Counted from the stretch's first letter, positions 16,554 through 50,435 are shown. The stretch is 64,000 nucleotides of DNA from a virus (IMGVR_UViG_3300032315_000774:1-64000); one strand, 5' to 3'. The notes: a model not told the origin generated them from the letters alone. Made by a program: numbers and translations.

Positions 16554-17000
16554 CTACTCCTTCACTTCGCGTGCCAGGTAGCGGAAGTCGACCTGCTCGC
16601 TCTGTAGCTCGGACGTCACCTTGCGGAGCACGCGCGACGTCCGCATGGACTTCGGGAGCACGTCCTTGAGCCAGCCGCTGATGCTGTCGGTCTTGCCGAT
16701 GCCGTACTGATGGCGGACCACAGCCAACGCAAGCAGCCCGAGCGGCTTGTTGGCCTCCTCCGCCTCCATCCCGACGAACTGCCGGGCCTTACGGTTGTCG
16801 TCAGAGTCCGCCGCGAGGTCCGTCAGCTCATGGTACGAGTCCTCGCGGCAGAACGGCTCGCCTCGCTCGATCGCCTCGCCGTCGCCGATCAGCTCGCGCC
16901 AGCTCTGAAACTCCATCACGTCGACGCCGTGACCATCCGACCGCGCGATGACGATGGGAAAGTCGCTGCCCTGCATGTAGTACCAGACGTTGGTCTTCAT
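16554..17000 (-). CDS. Hypothetical protein ending LAREVKE
   Basis: ORF reads through motif copy 1. Confidence 0.65.
   Translation of the reverse strand: MKTNVWYYMQGSDFPIVIARSDGHGVDVMEFQSWRELIGDGEAIERGEPFCREDSYHELTDLAADSDDNRKARQFVGMEAEEANKPLGLLALAVVRHQYGIGKTDSISGWLKDVLPKSMRTSRVLRKVTSELQSEQVDFRYLAREVKE
16561..16576 (-). promoter_or_regulatory. TGGCACGCGAAGTGAA motif copy 1
   Basis: Exact copy, 12 nt before ATG. Confidence 0.8.
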
Positions 17001-17002
17001 GA

Positions 17003-17380
17003 TCACACCTCGAAGTACGGCATGTTGTACTTCTTCAAGAAGTCCTCTACGTTCTTGTACTTCTGCACCGACTCGCGATCGGTGCACCACGCCCAGTCGG
17101 GGTACATCACGAACGCCTTGCGGAGCGTCGCGGCCGTCAGATCGGCTGCTGTCAGGTCTCGCGCGACCGAGAAGCCCGTTCCGGTCCGGAGGTTCGGCTT
17201 GTGAACTGTCGTCAGGGAGAACGTCCCTGTCGCCTCGGCCTGGATGTAGCCGATCTTGTCACCTTGGACGAAGTAACAGTACGTCGGAGCGTTGACGTCC
17301 GACACGAACACCCGGAAGCCGGAAACGAAGACTCGGAAGCCGAGGGACTTGATCAGGGCGATGGGAACGAGGTTGCGCAT
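17003..17380 (-). CDS. Hypothetical phage protein
   Basis: ATG 12 nt after motif copy 2. Confidence 0.7.
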   Translation of the reverse strand: MRNLVPIALIKSLGFRVFVSGFRVFVSDVNAPTYCYFVQGDKIGYIQAEATGTFSLTTVHKPNLRTGTGFSVARDLTAADLTAATLRKAFVMYPDWAWCTDRESVQKYKNVEDFLKKYNMPYFEV

Positions 17381-17388
17381 GTGTTCTT

Positions 17389-17856
17389 CTACTTCACTTC
17401 GCGTGCCAACGCCGCTTCGGCGTCGACCAGCGCGCGGCGCGCGGCCACGAGCTGGTCCCAGCTGCGCTGCCACTGCGCGATCGCCTCGCGGACGGCGGCC
17501 TCGACGTCGACATCGCCGTCACCCGACGACACCTGGATGTAGCCGTCCGATGCGATGTACACGGAGCACTGGTTCATCTTGATGACCGGCATGCTCTCGG
17601 AGACCTCCGCCATGCGGTTGCGCGCGAGCCCGAGCGCCTTACGCGCGTTCGCGAGCGCCTCCGCACGCTCGTCCACGTGCCACTCGCCGACCTCCAGGTG
17701 CAGCCCGTTGATGTTCGTCAGCCGGATCTTCCCGCATTTGGTGCAGGTCTCCTTTTCGCACACGTTGCCGTGCGCAAGCGGGTTCTGATCTTTGCTGACG
17801 GCACCGAAGAACGGCGCCGTCCGAACCTTGACGTTGAAGTGCGTGCAGTTGCTCAC
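17389..17856 (-). CDS. Hypothetical protein with CxxC, ending LAREVK
   Basis: ORF with GGAGG upstream. Confidence 0.65.
   Translation of the reverse strand: MSNCTHFNVKVRTAPFFGAVSKDQNPLAHGNVCEKETCTKCGKIRLTNINGLHLEVGEWHVDERAEALANARKALGLARNRMAEVSESMPVIKMNQCSVYIASDGYIQVSSGDGDVDVEAAVREAIAQWQRSWDQLVAARRALVDAEAALAREVK
17393..17408 (-). promoter_or_regulatory. Motif copy 2
   Basis: Exact copy, 12 nt before ATG. Confidence 0.8.
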
Positions 17857-17867
17857 GGTTCCTCCGA

Positions 17868-18056
17868 TTAGGCTGCAAGGTTTGCGACGGTCGCGTCCAT
17901 CTCAGCGATGATCTTGCGAGCGGTCTCGATCTTGGCGCTCAGCTCACTCTGGTTCTTGCCCATCTCCTCGGCCTCGATGAGCACATCCTCAGAGTTGTCG
18001 ACGAACTGGTTGAGAGCTTCCCAGACAACAAGAAACTGAGCGCGAGTGATAGACAT
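17868..18056 (-). CDS. Small hypothetical protein
   Basis: ATG 12 nt after motif copy 3. Confidence 0.65.
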   Translation of the reverse strand: MSITRAQFLVVWEALNQFVDNSEDVLIEAEEMGKNQSELSAKIETARKIIAEMDATVANLAA

Positions 18057-18064
18057 GCTTGCTT

Positions 18065-18358
18065 CTACTTCACTTCGCGTGCCAGGTCTTCGCCGAAAGC
18101 CACGGCGCCGATGGCCACGTACCGCTGACCGATCTGCATCGCAGCCTCGCCGTACGCGGTGACGAAGCCACCGGCCGCTCGGACCCACTTCTCGGGAAGG
18201 GGCGTCGCGCACTGCGCGTTCCAGCCCGCGCCTGCCGAACGCAGGTGCTGGAGCTTCTTGTAGATCTCTCGAAGAGAAGTCACCTCGATCTTGTAGCTGC
18301 GTACGACGTCCCCGTTGAACGTCTGCTTGATCGTCACCGTCATCTTCTCCACGCTCAC
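18065..18358 (-). CDS. Hypothetical protein ending LAREVK
   Basis: GTG ORF, tightly packed. Confidence 0.6.
   Translation of the reverse strand: MSVEKMTVTIKQTFNGDVVRSYKIEVTSLREIYKKLQHLRSAGAGWNAQCATPLPEKWVRAAGGFVTAYGEAAMQIGQRYVAIGAVAFGEDLAREVK
18069..18084 (-). promoter_or_regulatory. Motif copy 3
   Basis: Exact copy, 12 nt before ATG. Confidence 0.8.
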
Positions 18359-18361
18359 GAG

Positions 18362-18628
18362 TCACCTCTTCGAGAAGGCCCGTTCGATACGGGCCAGCGT
18401 GTTCTCGTCCAGCCGCGCGAGCGCGACCTTCTTACCGTCGAGCGCGGCGTTGACGTCGGCAAGCGTCAACAGACGCCAGTCTGCACCGACAAGGACGTCA
18501 CACACGCGCACGAAGGCGGAAACCTGCTCCAGGGTGACGCCGTACAGCTCTTGGATGTACGCGTCGTTGAAGCACATGTCTTGCCGCGCGGCCGTCAGCC
18601 CGGCGAACTGCTTCTTGGTCAGCTTCAT
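18362..18628 (-). CDS. Hypothetical protein
   Basis: ATG 12 nt after motif copy 4. Confidence 0.65.
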   Translation of the reverse strand: MKLTKKQFAGLTAARQDMCFNDAYIQELYGVTLEQVSAFVRVCDVLVGADWRLLTLADVNAALDGKKVALARLDENTLARIERAFSKR

Positions 18629-18837
18629 GCCTTGGATCTCTTCACTTCGCATGCCAACTCGTACGCCTTGTACGCGGCAGCGGCCTCGGCTCGCGCCTGA
18701 CGAGTGACCTTCCACGCTTCGATCGCGTCGGCCTCCGTCGTCGCCTGGACGATGCGCAAGGCGATCTCGCGCGCCTCTTCGTTCTTCGCACGCCACGCAC
18801 AGAAGGCTTTATGAGCACGCTCCTTCTTCGTCGACAT
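18625..18837 (-). CDS. Small Ala-rich protein ending LACEVKRSKA
   Basis: ATG with AAGGA upstream. Confidence 0.55.
   Translation of the reverse strand: MSTKKERAHKAFCAWRAKNEEAREIALRIVQATTEADAIEAWKVTRQARAEAAAAYKAYELACEVKRSKA
18641..18656 (-). promoter_or_regulatory. Motif copy 4 (TGGCATGCGAAGTGAA)
   Basis: 1 mismatch, 12 nt before ATG. Confidence 0.75.
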
Positions 18838-18897
18838 GATGTCCTTACCTCCACCGACGCACGGGAGGCGTAGTGCCTCCCGTGCGTCGTGCATGCA

Positions 18898-19779
18898 TCA
18901 GGCGCCAGCTTCGTCGCGGAGCGCGACCCGGTTCTCGGCCTCGATGCCGAACACTGAGCGCGCACAGTCGCTGCCGACCCAGATCGAGCGGGGCTGCTTG
19001 TCGCTGGTCACGACCACCGGGACCCAGTTGGCGGCGTTCGTAATGCGATGCCCGCACGCGTGGCAGCACGAGTACCGCGACGCGAAACGGCTGGTGTTGT
19101 GCTTGGTGCTCTCGGGCCACTTCAGCGTCGGCCGCCACGACCCGCCACCGTCAGGCACCAGCTCGATCTCGGGCATCGAGATCTCCGCCTCGGAAGCCTT
19201 CACAAACCCCATGTCCTGAAGCGTCGCCGTGATCGTCGGCGACACACCCAGCAGCGTGAACACCGGCTTCGGTCGCTGCGCGTCGAGCGCCTCGAACGTC
19301 TGCGCGACCAGCTGCGCGTCGTCGCGACGCGCGAAGATCTCATCGAAGAGCTTCGCCACTGCGCCCTTGTCCTTGTCCTTCTCGATCTCGTCGATCACCG
19401 CGTTCCGCACGAACGCAAGGTCCCCCTCGAAGTCCTGCCCGTCGTAGCGCACTCGCACCCGAGCGAGGTAAAACACACCGTAGGTTGCGGCCATGTCCAC
19501 AGTGTGGACGAGGTCTTGACACGCAGGCTGATCGCGCTGCCACTCCCAGCCCTTGCGACGCAAGCGATCCAGAGCCTTGAGCATCGCGCCGCCCATACGG
19601 CCGTTCGCGAGCTTCTTGCTGAGGGCAGCCCGCAGCTGCCGGGAGGTGTGCTCCTCCCAGTAGCCCTGGGTGACGGACTGAGCGTACGCCGCACGGAGCG
19701 TGGCGTACTTCGCCTGCTCCTTCGCAGGCAGGAAGGTGGCCAGGTTGTCGGAGGCGGTGAGGATGGTGTTGGTGTCCAT
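18898..19779 (-). CDS. Hypothetical protein with C-terminal Zn-finger (CxxC..GSDC)
   Basis: CHACGH...WVGSDCA; ATG 13 nt after motif copy 5. Confidence 0.75.
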   Translation of the reverse strand: MDTNTILTASDNLATFLPAKEQAKYATLRAAYAQSVTQGYWEEHTSRQLRAALSKKLANGRMGGAMLKALDRLRRKGWEWQRDQPACQDLVHTVDMAATYGVFYLARVRVRYDGQDFEGDLAFVRNAVIDEIEKDKDKGAVAKLFDEIFARRDDAQLVAQTFEALDAQRPKPVFTLLGVSPTITATLQDMGFVKASEAEISMPEIELVPDGGGSWRPTLKWPESTKHNTSRFASRYSCCHACGHRITNAANWVPVVVTSDKQPRSIWVGSDCARSVFGIEAENRVALRDEAGA

Positions 19780-19792
19780 GCCCTACTTCTAC

Positions 19793-19808
19793 TTCACTTC
19801 GCGTGCCA
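19793..19808 (-). promoter_or_regulatory. Motif copy 5
   Basis: Exact copy, 13 nt before ATG. Confidence 0.8.
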
Positions 19809-19814
19809 ACATCT

Positions 19815-20516
19815 TCACTGCTTGGGCTGTGAGAGGTGAGCGAGCGACCCCCGCACAGGATGGGGCTTGGTGTGGTCTTCGGCCTGAGCGAGTGCCGTGG
19901 CCAACTTCTCGATCTTCTGCTGAGCCTGAGCGACCGCTTCTTCGATGCGCTCCTCGATCTCGCTGACGTCGAGCGGGAGCGTCATACCGCCCGTCCACTC
20001 TTGGACCACGACCATGTCGAGAACTTCGACCTCGACACACATCACGATGGTGTTCTCAGTTGCGTGCTCGATCGCACGCAGGAAGCAGCGCTTCTGGTCG
20101 CGTTGCTCCTGAGACCAGACGCCCCGAGACATGCCGCTGGGTTTCCAGGTGACGCCATCGCTGACCGTCACCCACGCACCGAACACGCGGCTGTAGATCG
20201 TGTCGTGCGAGACTGCATGGCACGCGCGTGCGGTGCTGTCTTCACTCGCATGAACGAACGTCAGCTCTCCCGCCTCGAAGAGATCGGTGGCTTCGTCCTC
20301 TTCCAGCTTCACGTAGACCTGCACAGGCAGTAGACCGATCGTTCGGTCACACAGATGCTTGCGTGTGCGTGGACGCTCCTCGTTCACGACGCGGCACAGA
20401 TGCGCCGCTTGCGCATCGTTCTTCTGTCGCCAGGCAGTCTTCGCCTGGCACATCGCATTCCGAGGACTGTTACCCTCAGAACGGAACTTGATGTAGTCGG
20501 AGTACAGAGCGCTCAC
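19815..20516 (-). CDS. Hypothetical protein
   Basis: GTG 12 nt after motif copy 6. Confidence 0.65.
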   Translation of the reverse strand: MSALYSDYIKFRSEGNSPRNAMCQAKTAWRQKNDAQAAHLCRVVNEERPRTRKHLCDRTIGLLPVQVYVKLEEDEATDLFEAGELTFVHASEDSTARACHAVSHDTIYSRVFGAWVTVSDGVTWKPSGMSRGVWSQEQRDQKRCFLRAIEHATENTIVMCVEVEVLDMVVVQEWTGGMTLPLDVSEIEERIEEAVAQAQQKIEKLATALAQAEDHTKPHPVRGSLAHLSQPKQ

Positions 20517-20761
20517 GCCTGCTCCTTCTTCACTTCGCGTGCCAGGCGCGCGAGCGACCGCCACATGGCATGCAGCTCGCGCTCGTTGGCGTCCCACCAA
20601 CCAGCCGCTCGCGCATCTGCGTGCAGGGCAAAGTTCGGCCGCGATACCACCTCGCGAAGGTCGTCGACTTCTGTGCGAAGGAGATACGCACACGCCTCCA
20701 GCGACAGGTTGTCGGTCTGCCACGTGATCTCGGGCATGTTCTCTGGACGCTTCGCGTTCAT
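20513..20761 (-). CDS. Hypothetical protein ending LAREVKKEQA
   Basis: ATG 12 nt after motif copy 7. Confidence 0.65.
   Translation of the reverse strand: MNAKRPENMPEITWQTDNLSLEACAYLLRTEVDDLREVVSRPNFALHADARAAGWWDANERELHAMWRSLARLAREVKKEQA
20529..20544 (-). promoter_or_regulatory. Motif copy 6
   Basis: Exact copy, 12 nt before GTG. Confidence 0.8.
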
Positions 20762-20769
20762 GCGCTCCG

Positions 20770-21555
20770 CTACTTCACTTCGCGTGCCGACTCCTCACTG
20801 CTTCTTTTCACTCTCTTGAAGAAGTTCTCTCTGCGAAGCCACAACGCGGCGGCCTGCGCTTCTTCGTGGCGCTCCCCTTCAGACATGGGCTCTAGCGTGA
20901 AATCGCGAACCTCCAGCTCTAGTTGAGCTTTGACCTGCTCACAGATGTGGCACAAGCCCGCCTTTGGAACTTCTCGCTTGCAACGCGAGCACACATAGTG
21001 CGGCGCAGACCGAAACTTCAAGATCTCAGCTTTGGCACTGACGAGGTCTGTCGTCACACCTGTTTTCGTGAACTCCTTGTCGTTCACATGCCGCGCCCAC
21101 CATACGAAAACGAAAGCACCTGCAGCGTTCTCGTGGCACTCGACTGAAGCGTGAGGATCGGAGAGTCGCTTAGGCTCCCATTTCCCATTCTCGTCCATGT
21201 CAGCAAAGCTCGTCATCTTCATGGTGCCGTCCTTTTCGAGAGGCGCACTTGCTGAGAGTTCGCTCGCTTTTCTAGCGAGCCATACGCTTGGCTTTGACCA
21301 CATATCGCGTATCTCTTGCGATTTATGCTTGTCGCTCACGGTCGCTTCTACACCGATGGCATGAAGAGCTGTTGCCTTTGCTTCTTTCAGACCGTGAGCT
21401 TTCGTAACAAGTTCGCCGTCGACTACTACAGACCACAATCCTGTGTGTCGTTCTCCTCGCTTGTAGGCAGCGACCTCTAAGACTCGACCGTTGACTGTGG
21501 TTGTGAGTCCTGGCCCTTTACGACACCAAGCTACACTGTCTGTCTTCGCCTTCAT
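20770..21555 (-). CDS. Hypothetical protein, lower GC, with CxxC..CxxC, ending SAREVK
   Basis: 261-aa ORF with GAGG upstream. Confidence 0.6.
   Translation of the reverse strand: MKAKTDSVAWCRKGPGLTTTVNGRVLEVAAYKRGERHTGLWSVVVDGELVTKAHGLKEAKATALHAIGVEATVSDKHKSQEIRDMWSKPSVWLARKASELSASAPLEKDGTMKMTSFADMDENGKWEPKRLSDPHASVECHENAAGAFVFVWWARHVNDKEFTKTGVTTDLVSAKAEILKFRSAPHYVCSRCKREVPKAGLCHICEQVKAQLELEVRDFTLEPMSEGERHEEAQAAALWLRRENFFKRVKRSSEESAREVK
20774..20789 (-). promoter_or_regulatory. Motif copy 7 (CGGCACGCGAAGTGAA)
   Basis: 1 mismatch, 12 nt before ATG. Confidence 0.75.
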
Positions 21556-21556
21556 G

Positions 21557-21805
21557 TCAGTCCTCTAGCTTTTCTCCGGTCTCCGGGTCGAAGCCTTCGC
21601 GCTGAGCTTGCTGTCGAAACGCGTCGAGCACCGGCCGCCACGTACGCCCGTCGACCCACCGCGCGGTGTGTATCAGCTCCAGCGCGCGTGACCACTCGCC
21701 GCGCAGCGCGTGCGTGTATGCGTCGGCAGCGCAGTCCCATGCTTCAGCCTCACCTTCAGGCATCTCGACGCAGCGCGCTTCGATGAGGTCTGCAAGATGC
21801 TGCAC
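21557..21805 (-). CDS. Hypothetical protein
   Basis: Packed co-directional ORF. Confidence 0.55.
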   Translation of the reverse strand: MQHLADLIEARCVEMPEGEAEAWDCAADAYTHALRGEWSRALELIHTARWVDGRTWRPVLDAFRQQAQREGFDPETGEKLED

Positions 21806-21978
21806 GGCTCAGCCCGCCTGCACGTAGAACGCGCAAAAGCCTCTCTGGTCGCACCACATCCGTTCGACACGCCAGCCGTCAGGGCACGACTTCGCGAGCA
21901 GCAAAGCCGCACCAGGACGCACGACCGTGACCGCGAGCTGGCGGTCGTCGGACACGTGTGTCAGCCACACTTCATCGC

Positions 21979-23049
21979 TCATCGTTCGCTCTTGCGCAGC
22001 TTGTTCGGGACGATCGTCTGGTGCCGCCAGTGGTCGTTGGTCTGCACGTGGTTAGCGCGCACGTACTTCGCGACGCGCGAACCGAACTGGTCTCGCGTGA
22101 ACGACCCTGCAGGCCGCACGACGTAGCCTTCGTGCTCGCCCTCGTCTGCTTTGATCGGCACGTTTTCGAGACCACGCAAAAGCAGCTTGTGGATGCTTTC
22201 CTGCATCGAGACAGCTGCTGCCACGGACTTCGACAGCACCGGCACCGTGTGCAGCCCGAGAAGCGACGCCCACTCGACGGTGTCGGCCCACGACAAGCAC
22301 TCGTTGTCGATCCAGATCGAGAAGACGAGGAAGAACGACGGCAGCTCGCTGTAGCCGATGCTGTGCTTGGCGTACAAGTTCTCGCCGCAGATCCGCATGT
22401 TCGGTGGGATGTCGTGGCAGATCGAGGCCCAGAGACTCTTGATCCACGCGCGGTCAGGCGTCGCTCGATCGCTGTCGACCGACCGTGCGTGTACGTGGTC
22501 GCGATACAGCGTCGTGTTCTCGCCATCGAGCTTCAGTGTGGAGATGATGGTTCGGCTGAGCAGCTCAGTCGCTTGTGGCACAGTGAGGCGCTTGTCGTCG
22601 CTGGTCGCGCCTGGCGACCAGGGAAGATGCGGCGTGCGTGGATACTTCACCCACGACACGAACACGTCGGGATCGTCGTGGCCGCGCACGATGCGCGCGT
22701 GTGCCTCGGTCGCGTAGAGCGGCCCCTTGAAGCGACGACGCCCGTCGACGTACGCGTTGCCCCACTTATCGTACCGCGAGTCCGCGTCGAGCGACGGCGG
22801 CAGCAACACGCTCTTGATGCCAGCGTGCAGACGCAGCTCTTCGCAGCTGACTTCAGTCGATTCGGCCTTCACGTGGCAGCTCGCGCAAAGGCTCACACCG
22901 TTGTCGAGGTAGTAGCCGCCATCGTCCCACAGCTTGCGCTCAATGATGTGGTGCGCGTCGACGGCCGGTGCTGCACACACCACGCACGTCTGCTTGTCGC
23001 GCGCGAACACGCGCTCGCGGAAGTGGTCTCTCGTCAGCAGTGTCGTCAT
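21979..23049 (-). CDS. HNH domain fused to RNA ligase (nucleotidyltransferase)
   Basis: RD..CVVC..DAHHI..NG..LC..CH; KYPRTPHLPWS; motif I KLDGEN; CGEN; EGYVVR; VAKYVR. Confidence 0.85.
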   Translation of the reverse strand: MTTLLTRDHFRERVFARDKQTCVVCAAPAVDAHHIIERKLWDDGGYYLDNGVSLCASCHVKAESTEVSCEELRLHAGIKSVLLPPSLDADSRYDKWGNAYVDGRRRFKGPLYATEAHARIVRGHDDPDVFVSWVKYPRTPHLPWSPGATSDDKRLTVPQATELLSRTIISTLKLDGENTTLYRDHVHARSVDSDRATPDRAWIKSLWASICHDIPPNMRICGENLYAKHSIGYSELPSFFLVFSIWIDNECLSWADTVEWASLLGLHTVPVLSKSVAAAVSMQESIHKLLLRGLENVPIKADEGEHEGYVVRPAGSFTRDQFGSRVAKYVRANHVQTNDHWRHQTIVPNKLRKSER

Positions 23050-23513
23050 GACTTCTTCTCGTCCAGCCGCTCGAACGCAGCTGCAAGGATCTTGGCGTCG
23101 TCAACACGAGCGAGCACCTTGTCAAGAGCGCGTCGGACTGTCTCTTTGTACTCCTCCACCATGCAGGCGACCTCTTCTTCCGTCATACGATGAGCGAGCG
23201 GACGATAGCGCATCGGCTTGTTCGCTGGCCGATGCACGAAGCGCTCGGGGTAGCGCTCCAGCACCATCTCGACGAGCATGTCATTTTCGACACGTCGCGC
23301 TGTGCTCCAGTCGACTGAAGGAAGATCGCGCTCACGGAACGAGCCGTCCAGCTCGACGCGGATGAAGACCACCCGGTTGTGATCGTATCGCAGCTCGACA
23401 CCCGTCGCTTCGAAGATCCAAGCCGTGCGTCGCATGACGCGTCGTACGCGGAGGGCCGCAGCGTCGAGCACGTTGCGCTTGTCGTCGAATCGAAACGTGA
23501 TGACCTTGGCCAT
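23046..23513 (-). CDS. Hypothetical protein
   Basis: ATG with GGAG; ATGA overlap downstream. Confidence 0.6.
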   Translation of the reverse strand: MAKVITFRFDDKRNVLDAAALRVRRVMRRTAWIFEATGVELRYDHNRVVFIRVELDGSFRERDLPSVDWSTARRVENDMLVEMVLERYPERFVHRPANKPMRYRPLAHRMTEEEVACMVEEYKETVRRALDKVLARVDDAKILAAAFERLDEKKS

Positions 23514-23515
23514 AT

Positions 23516-23914
23516 TTACTCCGCGCAGTGTCGCCGAAACTCTACGATCTTGTCCCGAATGCGCTCCCAGACACGCGGGTCGACACGTGCGATGAGCACG
23601 AAGTCGTCGCACGTCAGAGGGTCCGTGTTATCGCCCCAGTCCGCGCGCACCACGTAGTCGACGATCTGTGCGTAACGGTCCTGCGTGGGCTCGTCGCTCG
23701 TCGCCGCTACGACCCACCGTGGCTCGGGGGACCAGTCTTCGACCGGCGTCACCGGCTCCGCGTCGCCCACGTAGCTGAGCGCATGCCCCAGCTCGTGGTA
23801 CAGGTCGGCCACCGTCAGCCCGACGACCATGTCTTCCCTCTGTTGAGGTAGGCGGCCCAGACGGGCGTCGTAGCCCAGGAAGCGAAGAAATCGGATGACG
23901 ACGTTCGCGTTCAC
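23516..23914 (-). CDS. Hypothetical protein with HExxH
   Basis: LYHELGHAL. Confidence 0.55.
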   Translation of the reverse strand: MNANVVIRFLRFLGYDARLGRLPQQREDMVVGLTVADLYHELGHALSYVGDAEPVTPVEDWSPEPRWVVAATSDEPTQDRYAQIVDYVVRADWGDNTDPLTCDDFVLIARVDPRVWERIRDKIVEFRRHCAE

Positions 23915-24222
23915 GCGGTGACTCCTACGGTATGGAGACGCGGCTCAGCGTAGCGCAGCACGAACACGAAGCGCGACGGCTCGAAGAGCTTTGCTTGTGC
24001 TGCGAGCATGCCGCGCACGACCTTGTCGTCGAGACCGAACCGCGCCCGCCACGCATCGGTGGCGAGCGCGTCGAACGTCCCTTCGGACGAGTACGGCACC
24101 TCGTACGTCGAAGACTTCTCCAGGCTCGTGAGGCACAGGAGCAGCAAGCGCACGTGCGTCTCGAACACGATCGGCTCGCGCCAAGCGAACACGTCGAAGC
24201 TCTTGAACGCAGGCTCGTTCAT
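23911..24222 (-). CDS. Hypothetical protein
   Basis: ATG with GGAGG. Confidence 0.55.
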   Translation of the reverse strand: MNEPAFKSFDVFAWREPIVFETHVRLLLLCLTSLEKSSTYEVPYSSEGTFDALATDAWRARFGLDDKVVRGMLAAQAKLFEPSRFVFVLRYAEPRLHTVGVTA

Positions 24223-24415
24223 GACTCCTCCACTGAGAACACGCTGTCCGCGACGAAGTGCTCGCGGAACACGGCACTGAAGCACAGGCCACTGTGGCCC
24301 GGTTCGAGCGAGCAGTGCCGGTTCATGTCCCTTCTGTAGTTGGCACACGTCAACACCGGGTTCGGTGGCGGAGGCGTCGGCGTCGCCCGCTGCACGTGGT
24401 TCTTGCGTCGTCCCA

Positions 24416-24886
24416 TCACACCACCTCCGCCGCCTGAGCGGCCTGCGTGTTGCGCTCGATGCTCACGTCGAGCTTGGCGGTGACGCGGCCCGCCACCTCG
24501 ACGCGGGGCGCGTTCTCGACGATCTCGTCCTGGATCGTCTGGATCGTCTGCTCCAGCTCATATTCCTTGACGAGCTGCTCCCGCATCTCGTCGTTGAGCC
24601 GAGCCGACTCGCGCAGCACGTCGCGAAGCAGGAGCTTCGCCGTCTCGCGCGTGATCCCTGCACGCTTGAGCAACACCGCCACGGTACCCAGGTTCAGCAG
24701 GCGGCTCGTCGGCCGCTGCGTGTAGCCGACACCGCGCTTGACGACGCCCGTCACACGGACGGTGAGATCCACCGACGCCGAGGAGCCCTCGGCGATCTCG
24801 GTCTTCTTGCGCTCCATGAGCGCGTCGCCGACCAGCGCGTAGAGCGCCGCCAGCTCGAAGGAGGTCAGGTCGTTCAGCGTAGCCAT
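24416..24886 (-). CDS. Hypothetical protein
   Basis: ATG 12 nt after motif copy 8; strong codon bias. Confidence 0.75.
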   Translation of the reverse strand: MATLNDLTSFELAALYALVGDALMERKKTEIAEGSSASVDLTVRVTGVVKRGVGYTQRPTSRLLNLGTVAVLLKRAGITRETAKLLLRDVLRESARLNDEMREQLVKEYELEQTIQTIQDEIVENAPRVEVAGRVTAKLDVSIERNTQAAQAAEVV

Positions 24887-24898
24887 GCCTCTCGCTAC

Positions 24899-24914
24899 TT
24901 CACTTCGCGTGCCA
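24899..24914 (-). promoter_or_regulatory. Motif copy 8
   Basis: Exact copy, 12 nt before ATG. Confidence 0.8.
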
Positions 24915-24915
24915 A

Positions 24916-25476
24916 CTACGAGGCGCGAAACCTCGGAAGCTCAGGCAGATCGTTTGACTTGACAGTCTTGGCCAGGTCGAGGAAGCACTGCGCACCGAGC
25001 ATGTATTCGAGGATGTCTCGGTTGCAACGACACTGCGTGTAGTTCTCGAATGCCGTTCGTGAATCGATGGACGCGTTTCGATGCTCCGCCCAGTCTTCGA
25101 ACGGCGTCTCGACGGTTGTCGCAGCATCCTTCACAAGCGCAAACAAGATCTGCTCTGACGTTGGCAATCTTGCGCCTTGCAAGTGGACTTGCCACGGCAT
25201 CGTGATCGCGTGCCGGTTGTTTCGTATCGTGACGCTCATGTGCACAGCGAGACTTGCCCCCTGGAACTTGAGGGTTGGCACAGAGATGACCATCCGAAGC
25301 CCAGAGCTGTAAGTCTCCTTGACCAGACGCAGCCACCAGTGCGTGACGCGCCCGAGGCCGATGGCTCGGTGCACGAGGTCGTCGGAGCGCAGGTCTCCCA
25401 GATGCACGGAGAGATCCGGTTGCGCCTTCTCCTTCTCGAAGGCCGCTTGGTCGAAAGCTGCAGGCTCGTAGTTCAT
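24916..25476 (-). CDS. Hypothetical protein
   Basis: ATG with GAGGAGG; stop abuts motif. Confidence 0.65.
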   Translation of the reverse strand: MNYEPAAFDQAAFEKEKAQPDLSVHLGDLRSDDLVHRAIGLGRVTHWWLRLVKETYSSGLRMVISVPTLKFQGASLAVHMSVTIRNNRHAITMPWQVHLQGARLPTSEQILFALVKDAATTVETPFEDWAEHRNASIDSRTAFENYTQCRCNRDILEYMLGAQCFLDLAKTVKSNDLPELPRFRAS

Positions 25477-25964
25477 GTGTTCCTCCTCTTCACCGCCTCC
25501 AAGAAGCGGTCAGCGCCTTCGACCAGATGCTCGTCAGTGTTCACATCGTCGAACTGCGAGAACTTGAGCATGTTCACCAAGTACGCGGCTCGGTCGTAGT
25601 TCTTGGCTCGAATCGCTGCGATGAGCGAGCCTTCGAGCCGTTCGACTTGCCCTCGGTACTTGTTGCGGTTGCGCTCTCGCCAGTCGGTTTCCAGAGCCGT
25701 CGCCGCAGCTTCCGCTTCGCTGACGTGAACGATGTCGTGCTTGACCGTCCGATACATCTTCGTCGTCTTGATGACCTTGAGCTTGAGCGGATGCAAGATC
25801 ACGACGTCCGCCGCACGACACGCAGCTTCTCGTGTCTGGATGAAGCTCTGAGGTTCGCGTCGAACCAGCGGGAACGTGATCGTGAGGGTCCCAGCTCCGT
25901 CTTGGAGCTTCCCTCGGAACACGATCCCTTCGATCTTTATCTCGAACTGCACTCGGACGTTCAT
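25473..25964 (-). CDS. Hypothetical protein
   Basis: ATGA overlaps on both sides. Confidence 0.65.
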   Translation of the reverse strand: MNVRVQFEIKIEGIVFRGKLQDGAGTLTITFPLVRREPQSFIQTREAACRAADVVILHPLKLKVIKTTKMYRTVKHDIVHVSEAEAAATALETDWRERNRNKYRGQVERLEGSLIAAIRAKNYDRAAYLVNMLKFSQFDDVNTDEHLVEGADRFLEAVKRRNT

Positions 25965-26416: not shown

Positions 26417-26632
26417 GGTCGTCCTTCTTCCACGACACGCGGCAGTGGGCAACGGGAGCGCTCCCGAAGCGGTTGTGGCGAACGACGCGCACCTCGATGC
26501 TGTTCTCGGTGCGTGTCGTGTCGATGGGCTCGATGTCGAGCGTGGCGTTTGTCTTCTGCACACGCCACGAGAGTGCACCCAGCGCGCACGCTTCGTAGGT
26601 CCGACCCTCGCGCTCGCGTGCTTCGAGCACGA

Positions 26633-26686: not shown

Positions 26687-26694
26687 CACCTTGA

Positions 26695-28163: not shown

Positions 28164-28172
28164 GTGTCCTCC

Positions 28173-28724: not shown

Positions 28725-28733
28725 AGTGGCCTC

Positions 28734-29254: not shown

Positions 29255-29266
29255 GCGAACAGCTAC

Positions 29267-29282
29267 TTCACTTCGCGTGCCA
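29267..29282 (-). promoter_or_regulatory. Motif copy 9
   Basis: Exact copy, 12 nt before ATG. Confidence 0.8.
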
Positions 29283-29284
29283 AC

Positions 29285-30431: not shown

Positions 30432-30446
30432 GATGTTCTCCTCTTC

Positions 30447-30462
30447 TTCACTTCGCGTGCCA
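30447..30462 (-). promoter_or_regulatory. Motif copy 10
   Basis: Exact copy. Confidence 0.8.
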
Positions 30463-30673: not shown

Positions 30674-30862
30674 CTACTTCACTTTGCGTGCCAGCCGAGC
30701 ACGAGCGCGGCGCGGAGACCGCACACGTACAGGCGGCGGAGCATGGAACTCCGCTGCGTGATCACGGCAGAGCGCCATGACGAAGCCCTCGACGACGACC
30801 GTCGTCGTAGCAGGCTGACCGCAGAGCTTGCCTGCGTGGTCAGGAGCGACACACCGATTCAT
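30674..30862 (-). CDS. Small Zn-binding protein ending LARKVK
   Basis: C..CG..A..LC..H; ATGA overlap. Confidence 0.55.
   Translation of the reverse strand: MNRCVAPDHAGKLCGQPATTTVVVEGFVMALCRDHAAEFHAPPPVRVRSPRRARARLARKVK
30678..30693 (-). promoter_or_regulatory. Motif copy 11 (TGGCACGCAAAGTGAA)
   Basis: 1 mismatch, 12 nt before ATG. Confidence 0.75.
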
Positions 30863-31227: not shown

Positions 31228-31239
31228 GCGACGAACTAC

Positions 31240-31255
31240 TTCACTTCGCGTGCCA
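31240..31255 (-). promoter_or_regulatory. Motif copy 12
   Basis: Exact copy, 12 nt before GTG. Confidence 0.8.
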
Positions 31256-32053: not shown

Positions 32054-32065
32054 GAGATATACTCC

Positions 32066-32081
32066 TTCACTTCGCGTGCCA
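32066..32081 (-). promoter_or_regulatory. Motif copy 13
   Basis: Exact copy, 12 nt before ATG. Confidence 0.8.
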
Positions 32082-32966: not shown

Positions 32967-32980
32967 GTGTGTCTTCTTGC

Positions 32981-32996
32981 TTCACTTCGCATGCCA
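32981..32996 (-). promoter_or_regulatory. Motif copy 14 (TGGCATGCGAAGTGAA)
   Basis: 1 mismatch, 14 nt before ardC ATG. Confidence 0.75.
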
Positions 32997-32999: not shown

Positions 33000-33271
33000 C
33001 CTCACTGCTCCTCACTTTTTCCTCACTTACTATAAGTACCTTATTTTATTAGAGAAAAAGCTAGTCTAGTGAGGAAGTGAGGAAAGTGAGGAGTATTTAG
33101 CGCTATGATACGAGATACAGAAAGAGAAACCCTTCTTTTGTGCAGAAAAGCACAGACAGCTTTTCTCCATGAGCACAATAGGAGCTACAGCTTGGGACCT
33201 CACCTTCCTCACTAAACGAGGAAAAGCTTAAGTAAACCGAAGGTTTACAGGTCAGTGAGGAGGAGGTGAGG
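33000..33271. repeat. AT-rich region with inverted arrays of CCTCACT iterons; candidate replication origin
   Basis: CCTCACT at 33000, 33010, 33021; AGTGAGG at 33068, 33076, 33085; second set at 33198, 33207 / 33254, 33265. Confidence 0.65.
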
Positions 33272-33742
33272 AGACAGCCACGTCACTAGCATCGTCTGGT
33301 CTTCCAACAGACGGCTCGTGAACTGTCGAGAATCATCTGGGGTCAGCTCGACGAGTGTGTCCGACAGCACATGTAGGATGTGGTCGATCCGGGAAACCGA
33401 GCATCGCTCACGACGCATCGCGTCGCGCTTGGCGGCCAGCGCTCGCACTTGAGCCACAGCGGCGAGCGGTCCTGACGTCGGCATGACATCAGCCTCGTGT
33501 GGCGCTGTGCAGAGCCCTTCCAGGAAGCGCTCGGTGCTCGGGTGGAGCGACCAGCCTGCGGCAGCTTGGAGCGCATACGGACAGCTTGGCGTGAGCCCAA
33601 AGAGCAGCTGGTAGCCGAGCTGCGTAGCCGGGTCTGAAGTGAGAGACGCGGGTACACGCAGCTGTGGTCCGAGCACAGGCGCGACACCGAACGTTGCGAC
33701 GAACAGCTTGCGGAACTCGACGGTCTTCACGCAGCCCGCCAC
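33245..33742 (-). CDS. Hypothetical protein
   Basis: 165-aa ORF. Confidence 0.5.
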   Translation of the reverse strand: MAGCVKTVEFRKLFVATFGVAPVLGPQLRVPASLTSDPATQLGYQLLFGLTPSCPYALQAAAGWSLHPSTERFLEGLCTAPHEADVMPTSGPLAAVAQVRALAAKRDAMRRERCSVSRIDHILHVLSDTLVELTPDDSRQFTSRLLEDQTMLVTWLSPHLLLTDL

Positions 33743-44415: not shown

Positions 44416-44442
44416 CTTGGTGAGGTTGATTCGAATGTTCAC

Positions 44443-44514
44443 CAGGGCCGGAGAGATTCGAACTCTCGTCGTCGGTTTTGGAAACCGCTGCACTGACCGC
44501 TGTGCTACGACCCT
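44443..44514 (-). tRNA. trnW: tRNA-Trp(CCA) with G27.A43 mismatch (4-bp anticodon stem)
   Basis: AGGGTCG/CGGCCCT acceptor; GCGGT TTCCAAA ACCGA; GAGAG TTCGAAT CTCTC. Confidence 0.9.
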
Positions 44515-44519
44515 ATCAT

Positions 44520-44590
44520 CAGGGGCTGAAGGACTCGAACCTTCTTACGCGGATTCAAAGTCCGCTGCTCAACCCATGAGCCAAACCCCT
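44520..44590 (-). tRNA. trnQ: tRNA-Gln(UUG)
   Basis: GCGGA CTTTGAA TCCGC; GAAGG TTCGAGT CCTTC. Confidence 0.85.
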
Positions 44591-44607
44591 GCGCTACGTG
44601 TACCACG

Positions 44608-46760: not shown

Positions 46761-47036
46761 CTACTTCACTTCGCGTGCCAACCGCTGGCGTCGGTTGGCC
46801 TCGTCCACAGCCGCGATGCCGAGCGTGCTGTCTTCACGCGACGACGCCACCAGCTGCGCAAGCTGCGCGTCCGTCAGCTCCGCCCACAGCCGAGCGAGCT
46901 GCGCGCGCTGCTTGGTGAGCTGCGCCGCGCGATCTCGCGCGAGGTTCTTGTCGTGGTAGATGTACCAGTCGGCGCCGCTCGGCGCGGTGCCGACGTAGGT
47001 CGTGACGTCGGAGTCGTTGATGGCGAAGTCGCTCAC
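46761..47036 (-). CDS. Hypothetical protein ending LAREVK
   Basis: GTG 12 nt after motif copy 16. Confidence 0.65.
   Translation of the reverse strand: MSDFAINDSDVTTYVGTAPSGADWYIYHDKNLARDRAAQLTKQRAQLARLWAELTDAQLAQLVASSREDSTLGIAAVDEANRRQRLAREVK
46765..46780 (-). promoter_or_regulatory. Motif copy 15
   Basis: Exact copy, 47 nt before the SD-led ParB ATG. Confidence 0.8.
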
Positions 47037-47281
47037 GCTTGCTCCTTCTTCACTTCGCGTGCCAACGCCACGCGGCGACGCAGCTCTGCATCGGCCTCGA
47101 TGCGCAGCTCGGTGCCGATCGCGGCTCGTGACACGATGTACTGGACCTGCGCGTCGGTTTGACGCGCCCACATCGCGCGCAGCATGCGACGCTGCGCCTC
47201 GATCTTCTCGACGTTACCGTCGTAGACGGTCCAACGGACGTCGCTCGGTGAGGTTCCGACATACACAGGCTGGTTCTTCAT
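47033..47281 (-). CDS. Hypothetical protein ending LAREVKKEQA; paralog of 46761-47036
   Basis: Shared YVGT.PS..W..Y and WA..TDAQ. Confidence 0.7.
   Translation of the reverse strand: MKNQPVYVGTSPSDVRWTVYDGNVEKIEAQRRMLRAMWARQTDAQVQYIVSRAAIGTELRIEADAELRRRVALAREVKKEQA
47049..47064 (-). promoter_or_regulatory. Motif copy 16
   Basis: Exact copy, 12 nt before GTG. Confidence 0.8.
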
Positions 47282-47293
47282 GCCACTTCCTAC

Positions 47294-47309
47294 TTCACTT
47301 CGCGTGCCA
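47294..47309 (-). promoter_or_regulatory. Motif copy 17
   Basis: Exact copy, 12 nt before ATG. Confidence 0.8.
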
Positions 47310-47516: not shown

Positions 47517-47528
47517 GCTGGTGTCTAC

Positions 47529-47544
47529 TTCAGATTGCATGCCA
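47529..47544 (-). promoter_or_regulatory. Motif copy 18 (divergent TGGCATGCAATCTGAA)
   Basis: Keeps TGGCA and TGAA at the same spacing, 12 nt before ATG. Confidence 0.65.
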
Positions 47545-47850: not shown

Positions 47851-48273
47851 TCAGTCTTCGTCCTTGAGGAGGAAGTCGTTGTTGAGCACCTTGAACGACA
47901 GGCGCCCGCCCAGCGTCCGCGATACACGGTCCACCAGCGGTCGCACCACGATCCCTTCGCGGCGGTTCTTGGTTCCCGCGTAGACGCCGTTGGCCATCGC
48001 CAGGTAGCGCTCCAGCGTGTGCTCGAAGCTCCGCGCTTCGTCGCCCCGCACTTCTCGCTCGATTGGCACCGTGGAAAGGCCCAGCGACGCGACGAAGGCG
48101 CGCATCTCGTCGAGCGAGAGATACGCCCCGCGCCGCGTGTCGAACACGCTGAAGTGTCCCAGCTTGGGCTGGACCGTACCGAACATCGGGCGCGAGGCCG
48201 CCCACAGCTCGTAGCCCTGCTCGTGCAGGACACGAAGCGCGTCGGGGAGTGCGGTGTCGAGGACATCGATCAT
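47851..48273 (-). CDS. C-terminal fragment of an Rnl2/DRB0094-type RNA ligase
   Basis: FSVFD..YLS..LSTVPI..REGIVVRP..SFKVLNNDFLLK; no KxDG motif I. Confidence 0.65.
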   Translation of the reverse strand: MIDVLDTALPDALRVLHEQGYELWAASRPMFGTVQPKLGHFSVFDTRRGAYLSLDEMRAFVASLGLSTVPIEREVRGDEARSFEHTLERYLAMANGVYAGTKNRREGIVVRPLVDRVSRTLGGRLSFKVLNNDFLLKDED

Positions 48274-48527
48274 GTCGTCTCCGTCTTCACTTCGCGTGCC
48301 AACCTCTGCACGGCGGTCTTGATCTTCTGACGCTGTGCGTCGGTCAGGTCGCTGCTCAGGTAGCTGACCGGACCGTCCGACAAGATCGACACGTAGTTCG
48401 GATACGCGATGACGCGCAGGTTGACCGTTGACTTCGGTTGCGAAGTGGTAGCTACGACCGTGCACAGGTACGTCTCCGGACGCACGACAGAGGTCTCCTT
48501 GACGACGAAGGTCTTGAACATGGCCAT
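48270..48527 (-). CDS. Hypothetical protein ending LAREVKTETT
   Basis: GAGG SD. Confidence 0.6.
   Translation of the reverse strand: MAMFKTFVVKETSVVRPETYLCTVVATTSQPKSTVNLRVIAYPNYVSILSDGPVSYLSSDLTDAQRQKIKTAVQRLAREVKTETT
48286..48301 (-). promoter_or_regulatory. Motif copy 19
   Basis: Exact copy, 12 nt before ATG. Confidence 0.8.
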
Positions 48528-48529
48528 GG

Positions 48530-48790
48530 CTACCTCTGCAGTGCGTCGAGCACAGCGCTTCGTGCCGCCTCGTAGCGCTCGACGTCGCCGGGCTCCGTGG
48601 GCCTCGACATCAGTGCGAAGATCCGGCCGAGCGCGAGGCGCACGGTGGCGTCTCGCGTCTCGATGTCGAAGCCGACGTGCGACGGCACGAACACCTCGCG
48701 TGCGCGCGGAGCTTCAGGCGCTTCGCGCGGTGCACCGAACAGCTCGCGTTCGATCGCACGTTGCGTGCGGCGTGACTGCTTGCGGGTCAC
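48530..48790 (-). CDS. Hypothetical protein
   Basis: Packed ORF. Confidence 0.55.
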   Translation of the reverse strand: MTRKQSRRTQRAIERELFGAPREAPEAPRAREVFVPSHVGFDIETRDATVRLALGRIFALMSRPTEPGDVERYEAARSAVLDALQR

Positions 48791-49036
48791 TGGACGCGCC
48801 TCCGGAAGAAGTCTGCGGCGGCGAAGCGCATCTGTCCCGCAGAGCCGACCACGGTCCCGACGAGCACGTCACGCTCGTCGTAGACGTAGCCGTGCGTGCC
48901 TGCGACGAACAGCTCTTCGAACTCGGGAGACTCTTCGGTTATGCCTTGCGCGATCAGCTTGGCATCTCGGTAGATGTCGATCTTCACAGCTCGCTCCAGT
49001 CGACGAAGTACGCCGGGTCGTTCAGGCGGTCCATGT

Positions 49037-49489
49037 TCACTTCTCCGTCGTCTTGGCTTGGATGCAGATCCTGATTTGCTTGCCTGCGAACTTCTTGAAC
49101 AGCTCGTCGTTACGCGGCGGCAGGTATGACGGCACGACCAAACAGTCGTTCTTTTTGTCCTTCCAGGCGCTCGGGTCTTTGCGTGGGTCCCACCCACGAG
49201 GCGGTACATGGAAGTCTTCTGGTGAAGACGGGTCGATCCACGCCTTGAAGAAGACTGCGTTGCTGCTGACGAAGTCCCAAGTCACGCCGATGAGCGGGAT
49301 CCTCAGTGCGCGGACCGCGTCGTAATCGTAGTCGACGACGCCATGCACGAAGTCCGCGCTGAGCATGTGCGCTTGGAGGTCCACAGACCCAAGTTTCAGC
49401 CACGGCACGCGTGGCTTGTCGATCTCGACAGTCGTCTTGCCGAAGCGCACGTCGCAGATGTGCGTGAGGTCGAGCTGTTCGATGGTCAT
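49037..49489 (-). CDS. Hypothetical protein
   Basis: ATG with GGGA SD; possible frameshift near the end. Confidence 0.6.
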   Translation of the reverse strand: MTIEQLDLTHICDVRFGKTTVEIDKPRVPWLKLGSVDLQAHMLSADFVHGVVDYDYDAVRALRIPLIGVTWDFVSSNAVFFKAWIDPSSPEDFHVPPRGWDPRKDPSAWKDKKNDCLVVPSYLPPRNDELFKKFAGKQIRICIQAKTTEK

Positions 49490-49689
49490 GTCAGTCCCTT
49501 TCGCGCTCGATGTCGGCGATGACGTGGATCGGCACGTCCGAGCGGTCCTCGAACCGCTCGACGCGATCGAACTTGTAGTCGCGACCGTAGGCCCACGCCT
49601 GAGCCTCACGCTCGGTCTCCGCGACGATGACGGCGAGAAGCGTCGGCCCTCGCATGATCTTCCAGATGCTTCGCATGGTCTCGTTCCTC

Positions 49690-50019
49690 CTAGGCGGTGA
49701 TCTCGACGATCGAGATCTTGTTCGTGCGCGTGTCCAGGACGCGCTGTGATGCGGTGTAGATCGTGAGGACGTCTCGCCACTGGTGTGGGCCGATTGGCGT
49801 CCACAGCGCGTTGTACGCGAGCAGGAACGGCAGGTCCGAGACCAGCGCGCGAGTCTTGCACTGCGGCATCAGCTCGCCTGTCAGGACGTGCCGACAGACG
49901 CCTTCTCCATTGTTCGCGTACACGCCTACGAAGCGGCTGGCGCTCTGCCAGACCGAGAACACGTTCTCGTACGCGTCAGGCGCCTCCAGACGCTGGAGCG
50001 TGGTCCGAAATCGGATCAT
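49690..50019 (-). CDS. Hypothetical protein
   Basis: ATGA overlap. Confidence 0.55.
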   Translation of the reverse strand: MIRFRTTLQRLEAPDAYENVFSVWQSASRFVGVYANNGEGVCRHVLTGELMPQCKTRALVSDLPFLLAYNALWTPIGPHQWRDVLTIYTASQRVLDTRTNKISIVEITA

Positions 50020-50405
50020 CGTATGAAGTCCTTTCCGTTGTTCCCGATGACTCGACACGAGTACGGGATCGTCTCGTTGAAGTAGTCCTCCTCGGGCCGC
50101 GACTGCGACCAGTTGTAGCGGTCGACGATCGCGCGGACGCGCTCGATCACCCAGATGACCTGAGCCGCGCTTGCACGCGTCAGCCAGGGGTAACGCAGCT
50201 CGGCGTCGCGCTGCGCAACCTCCTTCTCGTAAGAGACCTGCTCGATCGGGGCGTCGATCTTGACCGAGAAGGTCATCCACCCCGAACGCGGGTTCACGCG
50301 TACCGTGGCACGCAGACCGCTCGCCTTGATCGCGCGCAACACGTGCTGCGCACGACCGCGCAGGTCGAGGTGCTGGACCTCTGCGTAGCGGGGACCGGGC
50401 GACAT
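50016..50405 (-). CDS. Hypothetical protein
   Basis: ATG 14 nt after motif copy 20; YNWSQSRPEEDYF. Confidence 0.65.
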   Translation of the reverse strand: MSPGPRYAEVQHLDLRGRAQHVLRAIKASGLRATVRVNPRSGWMTFSVKIDAPIEQVSYEKEVAQRDAELRYPWLTRASAAQVIWVIERVRAIVDRYNWSQSRPEEDYFNETIPYSCRVIGNNGKDFIR

Positions 50406-50419
50406 GCGCTTGCTCCTTC

Positions 50420-50435
50420 TTCACTTCGCGTGCCA
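50420..50435 (-). promoter_or_regulatory. Motif copy 20
   Basis: Exact copy. Confidence 0.8.

Follow-up and report, generated by a model that had tools for sequence, protein, structure and literature searches.

In the window IMGVR_UViG_3300032315_000774:1-64000, a stretch of 64,000 nucleotides at the beginning of a 137,165-nt IMG/VR record of an uncultured freshwater phage (record about 61% complete), we analysed a 17-nt motif that resembles a sigma-54 promoter and recurs just before start codons. The 16-mer TGGCACGCGAAGTGAA presented 20 matches in the window at up to three mismatches, all on the minus strand: 15 were exact, four had one mismatch and one had three. Dinucleotide-preserving shuffles (n = 100) gave an expectation of 1.11 matches (standard deviation 0.95, maximum 4), and 0/100 shuffles reached 20. 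The 3-mismatch match, at 45328, lies inside a predicted open reading frame (ORF) and was discarded as chance. An earlier note on this DNA had also counted 20 minus-strand copies, 14 in 16.5-33.0 kb and six in 46.7-50.4 kb, and both the number and the two blocks hold, with the degenerate copy TGGCATGCAATCTGAAG at 47528-47544 evidently being its twentieth.

The genome-wide scan proposed there was run on the whole record and retrieved 22 copies of yTGGCACGCGAAGTGAAG, all co-oriented with the genes. Twenty are inside the window, and the two further ones, at 136231 and 137137, are on the plus strand, as are the genes in that region. A control pattern had 0 matches in the whole record. Copies occur only where small non-structural genes and replication genes cluster, and the structural half has none. 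Behind them lie mostly small genes of no known function, together with genes for an ArdC-like anti-restriction protein, an HNH endonuclease, an RNA-ligase fragment, a ParB-like protein and a RecD2-HHH protein.

The distance to the start codon is nearly fixed. Numbering the T of TGGCAC as position 1 and the preceding base as 0, the start codon stands at position 29 (28 nt after T1, with a 12-nt spacer) in 15/20 window copies, 12 of them with ATG and 3 with GTG. The spacer measures 13 nt in copy 5, 14 nt in copies 14 and 20, and 15 nt in copy 10, and copy 15 has a 47-nt leader. This recount agrees with the earlier one, which had given exactly 12 nt for 15 of 20 copies, 13-15 nt for four, and a leader with a Shine-Dalgarno (SD) sequence for copy 15.

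When the 22 copies were aligned, the motif was confirmed, and the conserved block was longer than previously described: y-TGGCACGCGAAGTGAAG-n-A-G, then R27, C28 and R29. A pyrimidine occupies position 0 in 22/22 copies, the block is unbroken through G17, and A19 (20/22) and G20 (19/22) follow. After a variable stretch, position 27 is a purine, position 28 is C and position 29 is a purine, each in 21/22 copies. Upstream of position 0 there is no conservation. The 6 copies with a start codon elsewhere than at position 29 retain C28 and R29 as well. Positions 18-27 present 52% A+T and 74% purine in a genome of 38% A+T.

The -24 box of the sigma-54 class is present, with G2, G3, C4, A5 and G7 each in 22/22 copies behind the invariant pyrimidine. 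At -12, where the class has GC ten bases after GG, within TTGCW, T13 and G14 are found in 22/22 copies, but position 15 is A in all of them.

The AGGAG that the earlier note had seen in some spacers was found as an SD core (GGAG, GAGG or AGGA within positions 12-28) in 11/22 copies and is absent from the other 11/22, so it is not part of the conserved element. The 17-mer itself is free of GGAG, GAGG and AGGA, and 11-12 nt separate it from the start codon. No RNA secondary structure stood out (mean z -0.22 over 21 copies; motif alone -2.2 kcal/mol), no shared word was found in the 160 nt upstream of the copies, and no TAnnnT-like -10 hexamer was found in positions 15-24 of the window copies. 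A consensus scan of 32900-34100 gave no sigma-70-like promoter.

Roughly half of the copies are entered by the preceding ORF, which stops at the motif's TAG or a few codons on; for the remaining copies, the stop codon of the preceding gene lies at most 16 nt upstream. About ten unrelated upstream proteins (window 16554-48527) share a C-terminal peptide for this reason (LAREVK, LAREVKKEQA, LAREVKTETT, LACEVKRSKA, LARKVK): their frames run into the box and end at the TAG or at an ATGA/GTGA overlap.

The only true relative found was Virus Rctr197k (KX853510.1), which comes from an enrichment culture. Its major capsid protein is 59% identical and its sheath 45% identical to those of the record, and 45 ORF translations of the record (a few of them shadow frames) match it in conserved order, with about 40 genes in synteny. 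The window's 16-mer is absent from Rctr197k, where a k-mer count and a distance scan retrieved 17 gene-co-oriented copies of yTGGCA(C/T)-N6-TGCTAT(A/C)AAGTGAG-n-C-ATG. These copies have G2/G3 and G14/C15 in 17/17 and T13 in 15/17, with variable positions 8-12, that is, GG-N10-GC. All 14 exact TGGCAY-N6-TGC matches of Rctr197k are copies of this element. Between its end and the ATG lie 2 nt, and the start codon begins at position 29 in 14/17 copies, the exceptions being position 30 (two copies) and position 33 (one copy).

Three copies occupy orthologous sites in the two phages. The copy at 20773-20789, before an 82-aa gene (20513-20761), corresponds to the copy before Rctr197k_152; the copy at record 136231, before the RecD2-HHH gene, to the one at Rctr197k 16538, before a Zn-ribbon N-terminus (pairwise E 1e-5); and the copy at record 137137 to the one at Rctr197k 15597, before a RecD-like helicase. 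Since the start distance, the -24 box with the TG of the -12 box and these three positions are the same, we take the window motif to be the same element as that of Rctr197k, with GTGA replacing TTGC at -12. What both phages keep is the -24 box yTGGCACG and the TG at 13-14, and each phage's own set is uniform.

Regarding the second of these sites, the Rctr197k ORF behind copy 16538 (16159-16506, minus strand, 115 aa, zinc-ribbon-like) overlaps the annotated recD2_2 in another frame and aligns with the N-terminus of the window phage's single 290-aa RecD2-HHH protein. In the GenBank entry, the start of recD2_2 seems to have been called too late, or the gene seems to be split or frameshifted.

At the strain level, contigs of four public runs were aligned to 16000-34500, with strains about 90-99% identical. 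The X15 strain lacks one motif-to-motif unit, the gene 19815-20516 with its box (joint 19810->20550). In X15 and X18, 245 other bases stand in place of the gene behind the box 32065-32081, which itself is retained (31843->32065). The boxes at 31255 and 20789 have a different sequence upstream of them, the breakpoints coinciding with the box's 5' edge (31255->31510, 20788->21556), and the unit with copy 3 is replaced by 80 bases (17865->18347). The HNH-RNA-ligase gene at 21979-23049 is missing with no box at the breakpoint. Thus, promoter and gene behave like a cassette that is gained, lost or exchanged among strains. Indels among phage strains usually coincide with gene borders in any case, and the breakpoints therefore do not make the box a driver of recombination.

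The repeat, its geometry, its equivalence to the relative's canonical sigma-54-type element and the strain modularity are direct observations, and from them we infer promoter identity, sigma-54 as the reader, the RNA start site and the time of firing. Taking all promoter readings together, it is quite likely that the motif is a promoter. More specifically, we judge it somewhat probable that the copies are promoters for the host's sigma-54 holoenzyme that give mRNAs with leaders of 0-2 nt, each forming a unit with its gene.

In such a promoter, yTGGCACG would be the -24 box and GTGAA, ten bases after GG, would stand in for TTGCW. Transcription would start 11-14 bases further, at positions 27-29, which is at the start codon or 2 nt before it. 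The rule used for E. coli, with the start 19 nt after the motif centre (PMC4591121, in the part of that paper available), predicts position 27, two bases before the start codon, and the conserved C28/R29 allows a start at 29; either way, the leader would have 0-2 nt. Translation of the gene next to the promoter would accordingly use an mRNA without a leader or with one of 2 nt. With the tight packing of the genes, the same genes would also lie inside read-through transcripts from upstream copies, which would explain both the SD core in half of the spacers and the stop codons (TGA, TAG) supplied by the motif.

Several features fit this reading. The retention of C28/R29 despite a displaced start codon is more readily reconciled with a transcription start of pyrimidine(-1)/purine(+1) than with the context of a start codon. 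Copy 15, with its 47-nt SD-bearing leader, indicates that the box works apart from translation start sites. A contiguous 17-21-nt block that ends about 9-10 nt before the start fits sigma-54 rather than a -35/-10 pair with a 16-18-nt spacer, and the A+T and purine richness of positions 18-27 suits DNA that has to melt. A second protein site, specific to the phage, may account for the extra invariant bases CGAAGTGAAG-AG, given that AAGTGAG is also found in the relative's element and in repeat clusters of the record; equally, these bases may reflect identity by recent descent.

The sigma-54 consensus is reportedly mrNrYTGGCACGrNNNTTGCWNNw (Barrios 1999), and the -12 C is the base contacted by sigma-54. 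The hydN promoter of E. coli depends on FhlA. In the accessible part of a chromatin immunoprecipitation sequencing study of sigma-54 in E. coli, 8 of the 50 intergenic sites listed in Table 1 lack GC at -12 and 3 have GA (PMC4591121). One of these three is the experimentally confirmed hydN promoter (site OS26), CTGGCATGATTTGTGAA, which ends in GTGAA (PMC4591121). The earlier note had proposed a sigma-54-like promoter with a non-canonical -12 element at a fixed distance, producing near-leaderless mRNAs. This core idea is strongly backed by the comparison with Rctr197k, which has the canonical GG-N10-GC at the same 28 nt before orthologous genes, and the -12 element turns out to be less exotic than claimed, given the E. 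coli sites without GC. The independence from an activator that the note had raised as a possibility is speculation, and the early timing that it gave these promoters is conjectural. The unusual part is the leaderless layout, not the -12 box.

Compared with hydN and other sigma-54 promoters, the phage element has the same yTGGCA(C/T)G box, TG 10-11 bases after GG, GTGAA at -12, a contiguous element of about 17 nt and a predicted start about 19 nt after its centre. It differs in that the start codon is 0-2 nt from the predicted transcription start, whereas the E. coli table gives at least 18 nt for protein genes (PMC4591121, as far as that table was available). It also differs from bacterial sigma-54 promoters in its 22 near-identical copies, in the absence of the -12 C from all of them rather than from a minority, and in that no activator gene or enhancer was seen.

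Some of our results and some published data weigh against sigma-54 promoters. The -12 C is replaced by A in 22/22 copies, and the canonical TGGCAY-N6-TGC occurs in the record at chance level (3 matches vs 2 in the control). The 'spacer' bases CGAA are fully identical, beyond the need of a two-box promoter. In Rctr197k, TGcTATAAA is readable as the extended -10 of a sigma-70-type promoter starting at the ATG, although it agrees with the sigma-70 -10 only in part, its last position being A and not T; this makes the element of that phage, and not that of the window, ambiguous between the sigma-54 and sigma-70 classes. The shortest distance between a predicted start and a protein gene in the E. 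coli table is 18 nt (PMC4591121, in the portion at hand), so a leaderless layout is not usual for sigma-54 genes. The RNA libraries X15 and X18 are represented by contigs only, with no strand or 5' ends, and they may contain DNA. That the host has sigma-54 is itself an assumption.

The main weakness is the absence of an activator and an enhancer, because sigma-54 is described as absolutely activator-dependent in the available parts of two sources (PMC4591121; PMC5095919). Neither an enhancer-binding protein nor a common upstream enhancer word was found in the available sequence of either phage. Searches with peptide motifs used the RpoN-box, NADFDGD and GAFTGA, the last being the loop of enhancer-binding activators. 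Six-frame translations of the two phages contained no GAFTGA-like peptide, and PF00158 (Sigma54_activat) matched P-loop stretches only, in the ComM/Mg-chelatase-like ATPase at 26695-27774 and in the Rctr197k RecD-like helicase. The phage rpoN that the earlier note had suggested looking for did not turn up: neither the record, at its 61% or so completeness, nor Rctr197k gave a match to PF04552 or PF04963, and no RpoN-box-like peptide was present in their six frames. A DFDGD-like peptide in Rctr197k_172 was judged coincidental. For the T7-like RNA polymerase (PF00940) there was no match in the incomplete record, and the control matched in no genome.

The best candidate reader, from sequence comparison, would still be the host sigma-54 holoenzyme. 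It is favoured because the host-type -24 box is what both phages keep, and because a -35/-10 pair does not fit into a 21-nt block whose end is about 9 nt from the start. Promoter opening may come from a host activator acting from solution, from an unrecognised phage protein or from a relaxed dependence. An enhancer-free, phage-controlled variant seems decidedly unlikely to us: in it, the loss of C at -12 and the easily melted purine/A-rich stretch would weaken the sigma-54 lock, so that about twenty leaderless genes fire without a classical activator, or an unrecognised phage protein bound to AAGTGA would replace the AAA+ activator.

The absence of any activator or enhancer also speaks for promoters read via a phage-encoded factor, either a divergent sigma or another appropriator of the host RNA polymerase, the likeness to sigma-54 being convergent or partial. 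We consider this rather unlikely. Within each phage the set is uniform, but between the 22 copies and the relative's 17 the -12/downstream half diverges, a pattern expected of promoters that co-evolve with a phage-specific reader, and promoters of the T7, T3 and SP6 type co-evolve in this way. A candidate sigma is P0006, a 295-aa orphan (record 70025-70912, minus strand) with a Cys cluster at its start (CSTCPAKNQC), whose ESM Atlas neighbours are ECF/sigma-70-like (feature score 0.95; structure TM 0.26-0.39, weak). More distant relatives such as PaBG encode divergent sigma-70-like factors (PMC7412058, in its accessible sections). However, P0006 has no match in Pfam, PHROGs, PDB, a phage database or Rctr197k, and lacking a counterpart in Rctr197k it cannot be the common reader of the shared TGGCAC box. 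Sigma70_r2 has no match anywhere in the record, and the sigma-70 family needs -35 and -10 boxes 16-18 nt apart, for which the 21-nt block is too small. The part kept in both phages is the host-type -24 box with the TG at 13-14.

Two further explanations place the function of the motif elsewhere. If it acted in the mRNA, as a start-associated translation signal or as a site of protein or RNA binding or processing, it would resemble the SAS of Cluster K mycobacteriophages; this we hold to be very unlikely. The SAS/ESAS are asymmetric one-orientation repeats found only at non-structural genes, just upstream of starts, with upstream stops inside and an unproven function (PMC3203893, from the parts available). 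The window motif shares with them its fixed start-codon distance, strict co-orientation, gene content, internal stops and purine-rich 3' half, and 11/22 of its spacers hold GGAG, GAGG or AGGA. The SAS, however, are 13 bp long, lie 3-7 bp before the start and contain the SD core AGGAG (PMC3203893), whereas the window motif ends 11-12 nt before the start, holds no SD core and matches a promoter consensus. Half of the spacers have no SD core, copy 46764-46780 sits 47 nt from a start codon with its own SD, the relative's element, which stops 2 nt short of the ATG, has promoter boxes and no ribosome-binding site, and no RNA structure was found. It is extremely unlikely that the copies are above all recombination or junction repeats (boundary repeats or HNH endonuclease targets) that shuffle cassettes, promoter activity being secondary. 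The whole-unit strain differences with breakpoints at motif edges, the 17-nt near-identity, even at positions that vary in the relative, and three HNH genes within the motif blocks agree with it. Seventeen nucleotides are nonetheless short for homologous recombination, the coincidence of breakpoints and boxes is confounded by the preference of phage indels for gene borders, and the fixed 28-nt distance, C28/R29 and the sigma-54 geometry of the relative would be left unexplained.

Sigma-54 promoters are thus retained as the preferred explanation, and phage use of sigma-54 is rare but has a precedent. The development of Pseudomonas phage YuA depends on host sigma-54 (PMC5053324; bioRxiv 10.1101/2023.10.13.562163, citing Ceyssens et al. 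2008; both available in part). Both phages would use host sigma-54 for part of their programme (PMC5053324), and they differ in that one sigma-54-like promoter region is reported for YuA, in the accessible text (bioRxiv 10.1101/2023.10.13.562163), vs an array of about 20 copies abutting start codons in the window phage. Leaderless genes of Deinococcus-Thermus are similar in having a promoter so close that the mRNA begins at the start codon, and they differ in their sigma-70-type -10: the window motif has no TAnnnT-like box, while TGcTATAAA of Rctr197k could fit (PMC12340547, in the sections at hand). The open-access literature, supplements aside, yielded no account of leaderless phage genes served by arrays of sigma-54-type promoters. 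Leaderless transcripts are also made by the Thermus phage phiYS40.

Textbooks present sigma-54 as the example of initiation that is tightly locked and depends on an activator, and phages are believed to use it rarely. What distinguishes the present case is the copy number and the leaderless layout, together with the fact that the -12 C, kept in a canonical relative, is gone from every copy and that no activator is visible. It raises the questions of what opens these promoters with no activator or enhancer in sight and how leaderless messages get translated. A phage with the canonical -12 GC and a relative with GA throughout represent a natural experiment on the role of the -12 element. Moreover, promoter-plus-gene units show accessory genes moving between strains ready for expression.

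The individual copies of the window are all on the minus strand, and those not described otherwise are exact 17-mers. Copy 1 (16560..16576) precedes ATG 16548 of a 121-aa ORF and is unchanged in all four runs among the single-base differences listed. Copy 2 (17392..17408) precedes ATG 17380 (125 aa), and the upstream ORF ends in ...LAREVK* within it. Copy 3 (18068..18084; ATG 18056, 62 aa) belongs to a unit absent from the X15 strain. Copy 4 (18640..18656; ATG 18628, 88 aa) is a TGGCAT variant. The start codon of copy 5 (19792..19808) comes 1 base later than usual, at ATG 19779, and opens a 293-aa ORF. Copy 6 (20528..20544), with GTG 20516 and 233 aa, is the promoter deleted together with its gene in the X15 strain. 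Copy 7 (20773..20789; ATG 20761, 82 aa) is a CGGCAC variant with AGTGAGGAGT just before it, and its orthologue Rctr197k_152 has a canonical copy.

Copies 8 (24898..24914; ATG 24886, 156 aa) and 9 (29266..29282; ATG 29254, 80 aa) follow, the latter with a spacer without an SD core. For copy 10 (30446..30462), the start codon is 3 bases later than usual (ATG 30431, 208 aa). Copy 11 (30677..30693; ATG 30665, 62 aa) is a GCAAAG variant. Copy 12 (31239..31255) stands before GTG 31227 of the HNH endonuclease gene (122 aa), with the strain breakpoint at its 5' edge. Copy 13 (32065..32081; ATG 32053, 66 aa) is the one that keeps its motif in X15 and X18 while its gene is swapped. Copy 14 (32980..32996), a TGGCAT variant, is the first copy of its block; it precedes the ArdC-like gene (ATG 32966, 293 aa) and adjoins an AT-rich region with AGTGAGG repeats.

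In the second block, copy 15 (46764..46780) has GTC at position 29 and AGAGGAG in its 47-nt leader, before ATG 46717 of the ParB-like gene (331 aa). It is followed by copy 16 (47048..47064; GTG 47036, 91 aa), copy 17 (47293..47309; ATG 47281, 82 aa) and the degenerate copy 18 (47528..47544; ATG 47516, 67 aa). Copy 19 (48285..48301) precedes ATG 48273 of a 140-aa ORF, and copy 20 (50419..50435) precedes ATG 50405, 2 bases later than usual, of a 129-aa ORF. The ORF behind copy 19 (47851-48273) has only the C-terminal half of the RNA_ligase domain, matching profile positions 90-170 only, and may be a gene remnant. A complete HNH-RNA-ligase fusion of 356 aa is encoded at 21979-23049, the gene missing from the X15 and X18 strains.

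The AT-rich non-coding region 33001..33300, at the head of the first block, contains clusters of CCTCACT/AGTGAGG repeats in both orientations and would be a candidate binding region for a phage regulator. Altogether, three AGTGAG(G) clusters were observed, in window 33001-33300 and at record 98608-98672 and 98785-98869, each with two or three reverse and then three forward copies around AT-rich DNA. One is directly upstream of the first copy of the block and two are inside the neck-gene region; all may be sites of a phage regulator. The word AAGTGA is found inside the motif, and AAGTGAG inside the Rctr197k element.

Searches for further relatives and for the host gave little. The exact 16-mer had 7 single matches in IMG/VR and the 17-mer at least 119 single matches in metagenome contigs. 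None of the metagenome loci examined is like the record, except for one 55-nt stretch at 80% identity, and one locus has a second, weak copy; the single matches were treated as chance. The Rctr197k-type motif had no exact match in IMG/VR. Alignment of the sheath gave 26 loci that match mostly a repeated domain, and the two examined whole share almost nothing with the record. Alignment of the major capsid protein gave 7 short IMG/VR fragments (9-32% complete), none with a TGGCAY...CRTG match, and no relatives among genome contigs; the primase-like and DUF7178 alignments gave no relatives either. The RecD2-HHH protein has three homologues (74, 63 and 35% identical). The nearest ESM Atlas clusters of the RadC-like protein are Pseudomonadota, a weak hint of the host.

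Other observations concern neighbouring genes and the relative. The AAA+ protein at 26695-27774 has Mg_chelatase as its best match, and its first ~190 residues match nothing; it is not an enhancer-binding protein, and its PFRAPHHS stretch is presumably reminiscent of ComM/YifB. The top repeat of Rctr197k was ruled out as an analogue of the motif, being a CRISPR-like array at 110700-112400 with 22 copies of a ~36-nt repeat, 62-95 nt from start to start (mostly 71-74), and unique spacers of ~35 nt. A search of GTDB, with each species represented by one genome, gave no exact match to a 24-nt core of this repeat. The window ORFs 2780-9532 (2250 aa) and 246-2879 (877 aa, DUF7178) both match parts of the 2039-aa Rctr197k_173; either one gene was split in the window phage or two were fused in Rctr197k. 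Finally, ARAGORN retrieved 26 tRNA genes, two mid-window at 44442-44591 and 24 in a single minus-strand array spanning the window's end (62815-63949; record 64033-65473).

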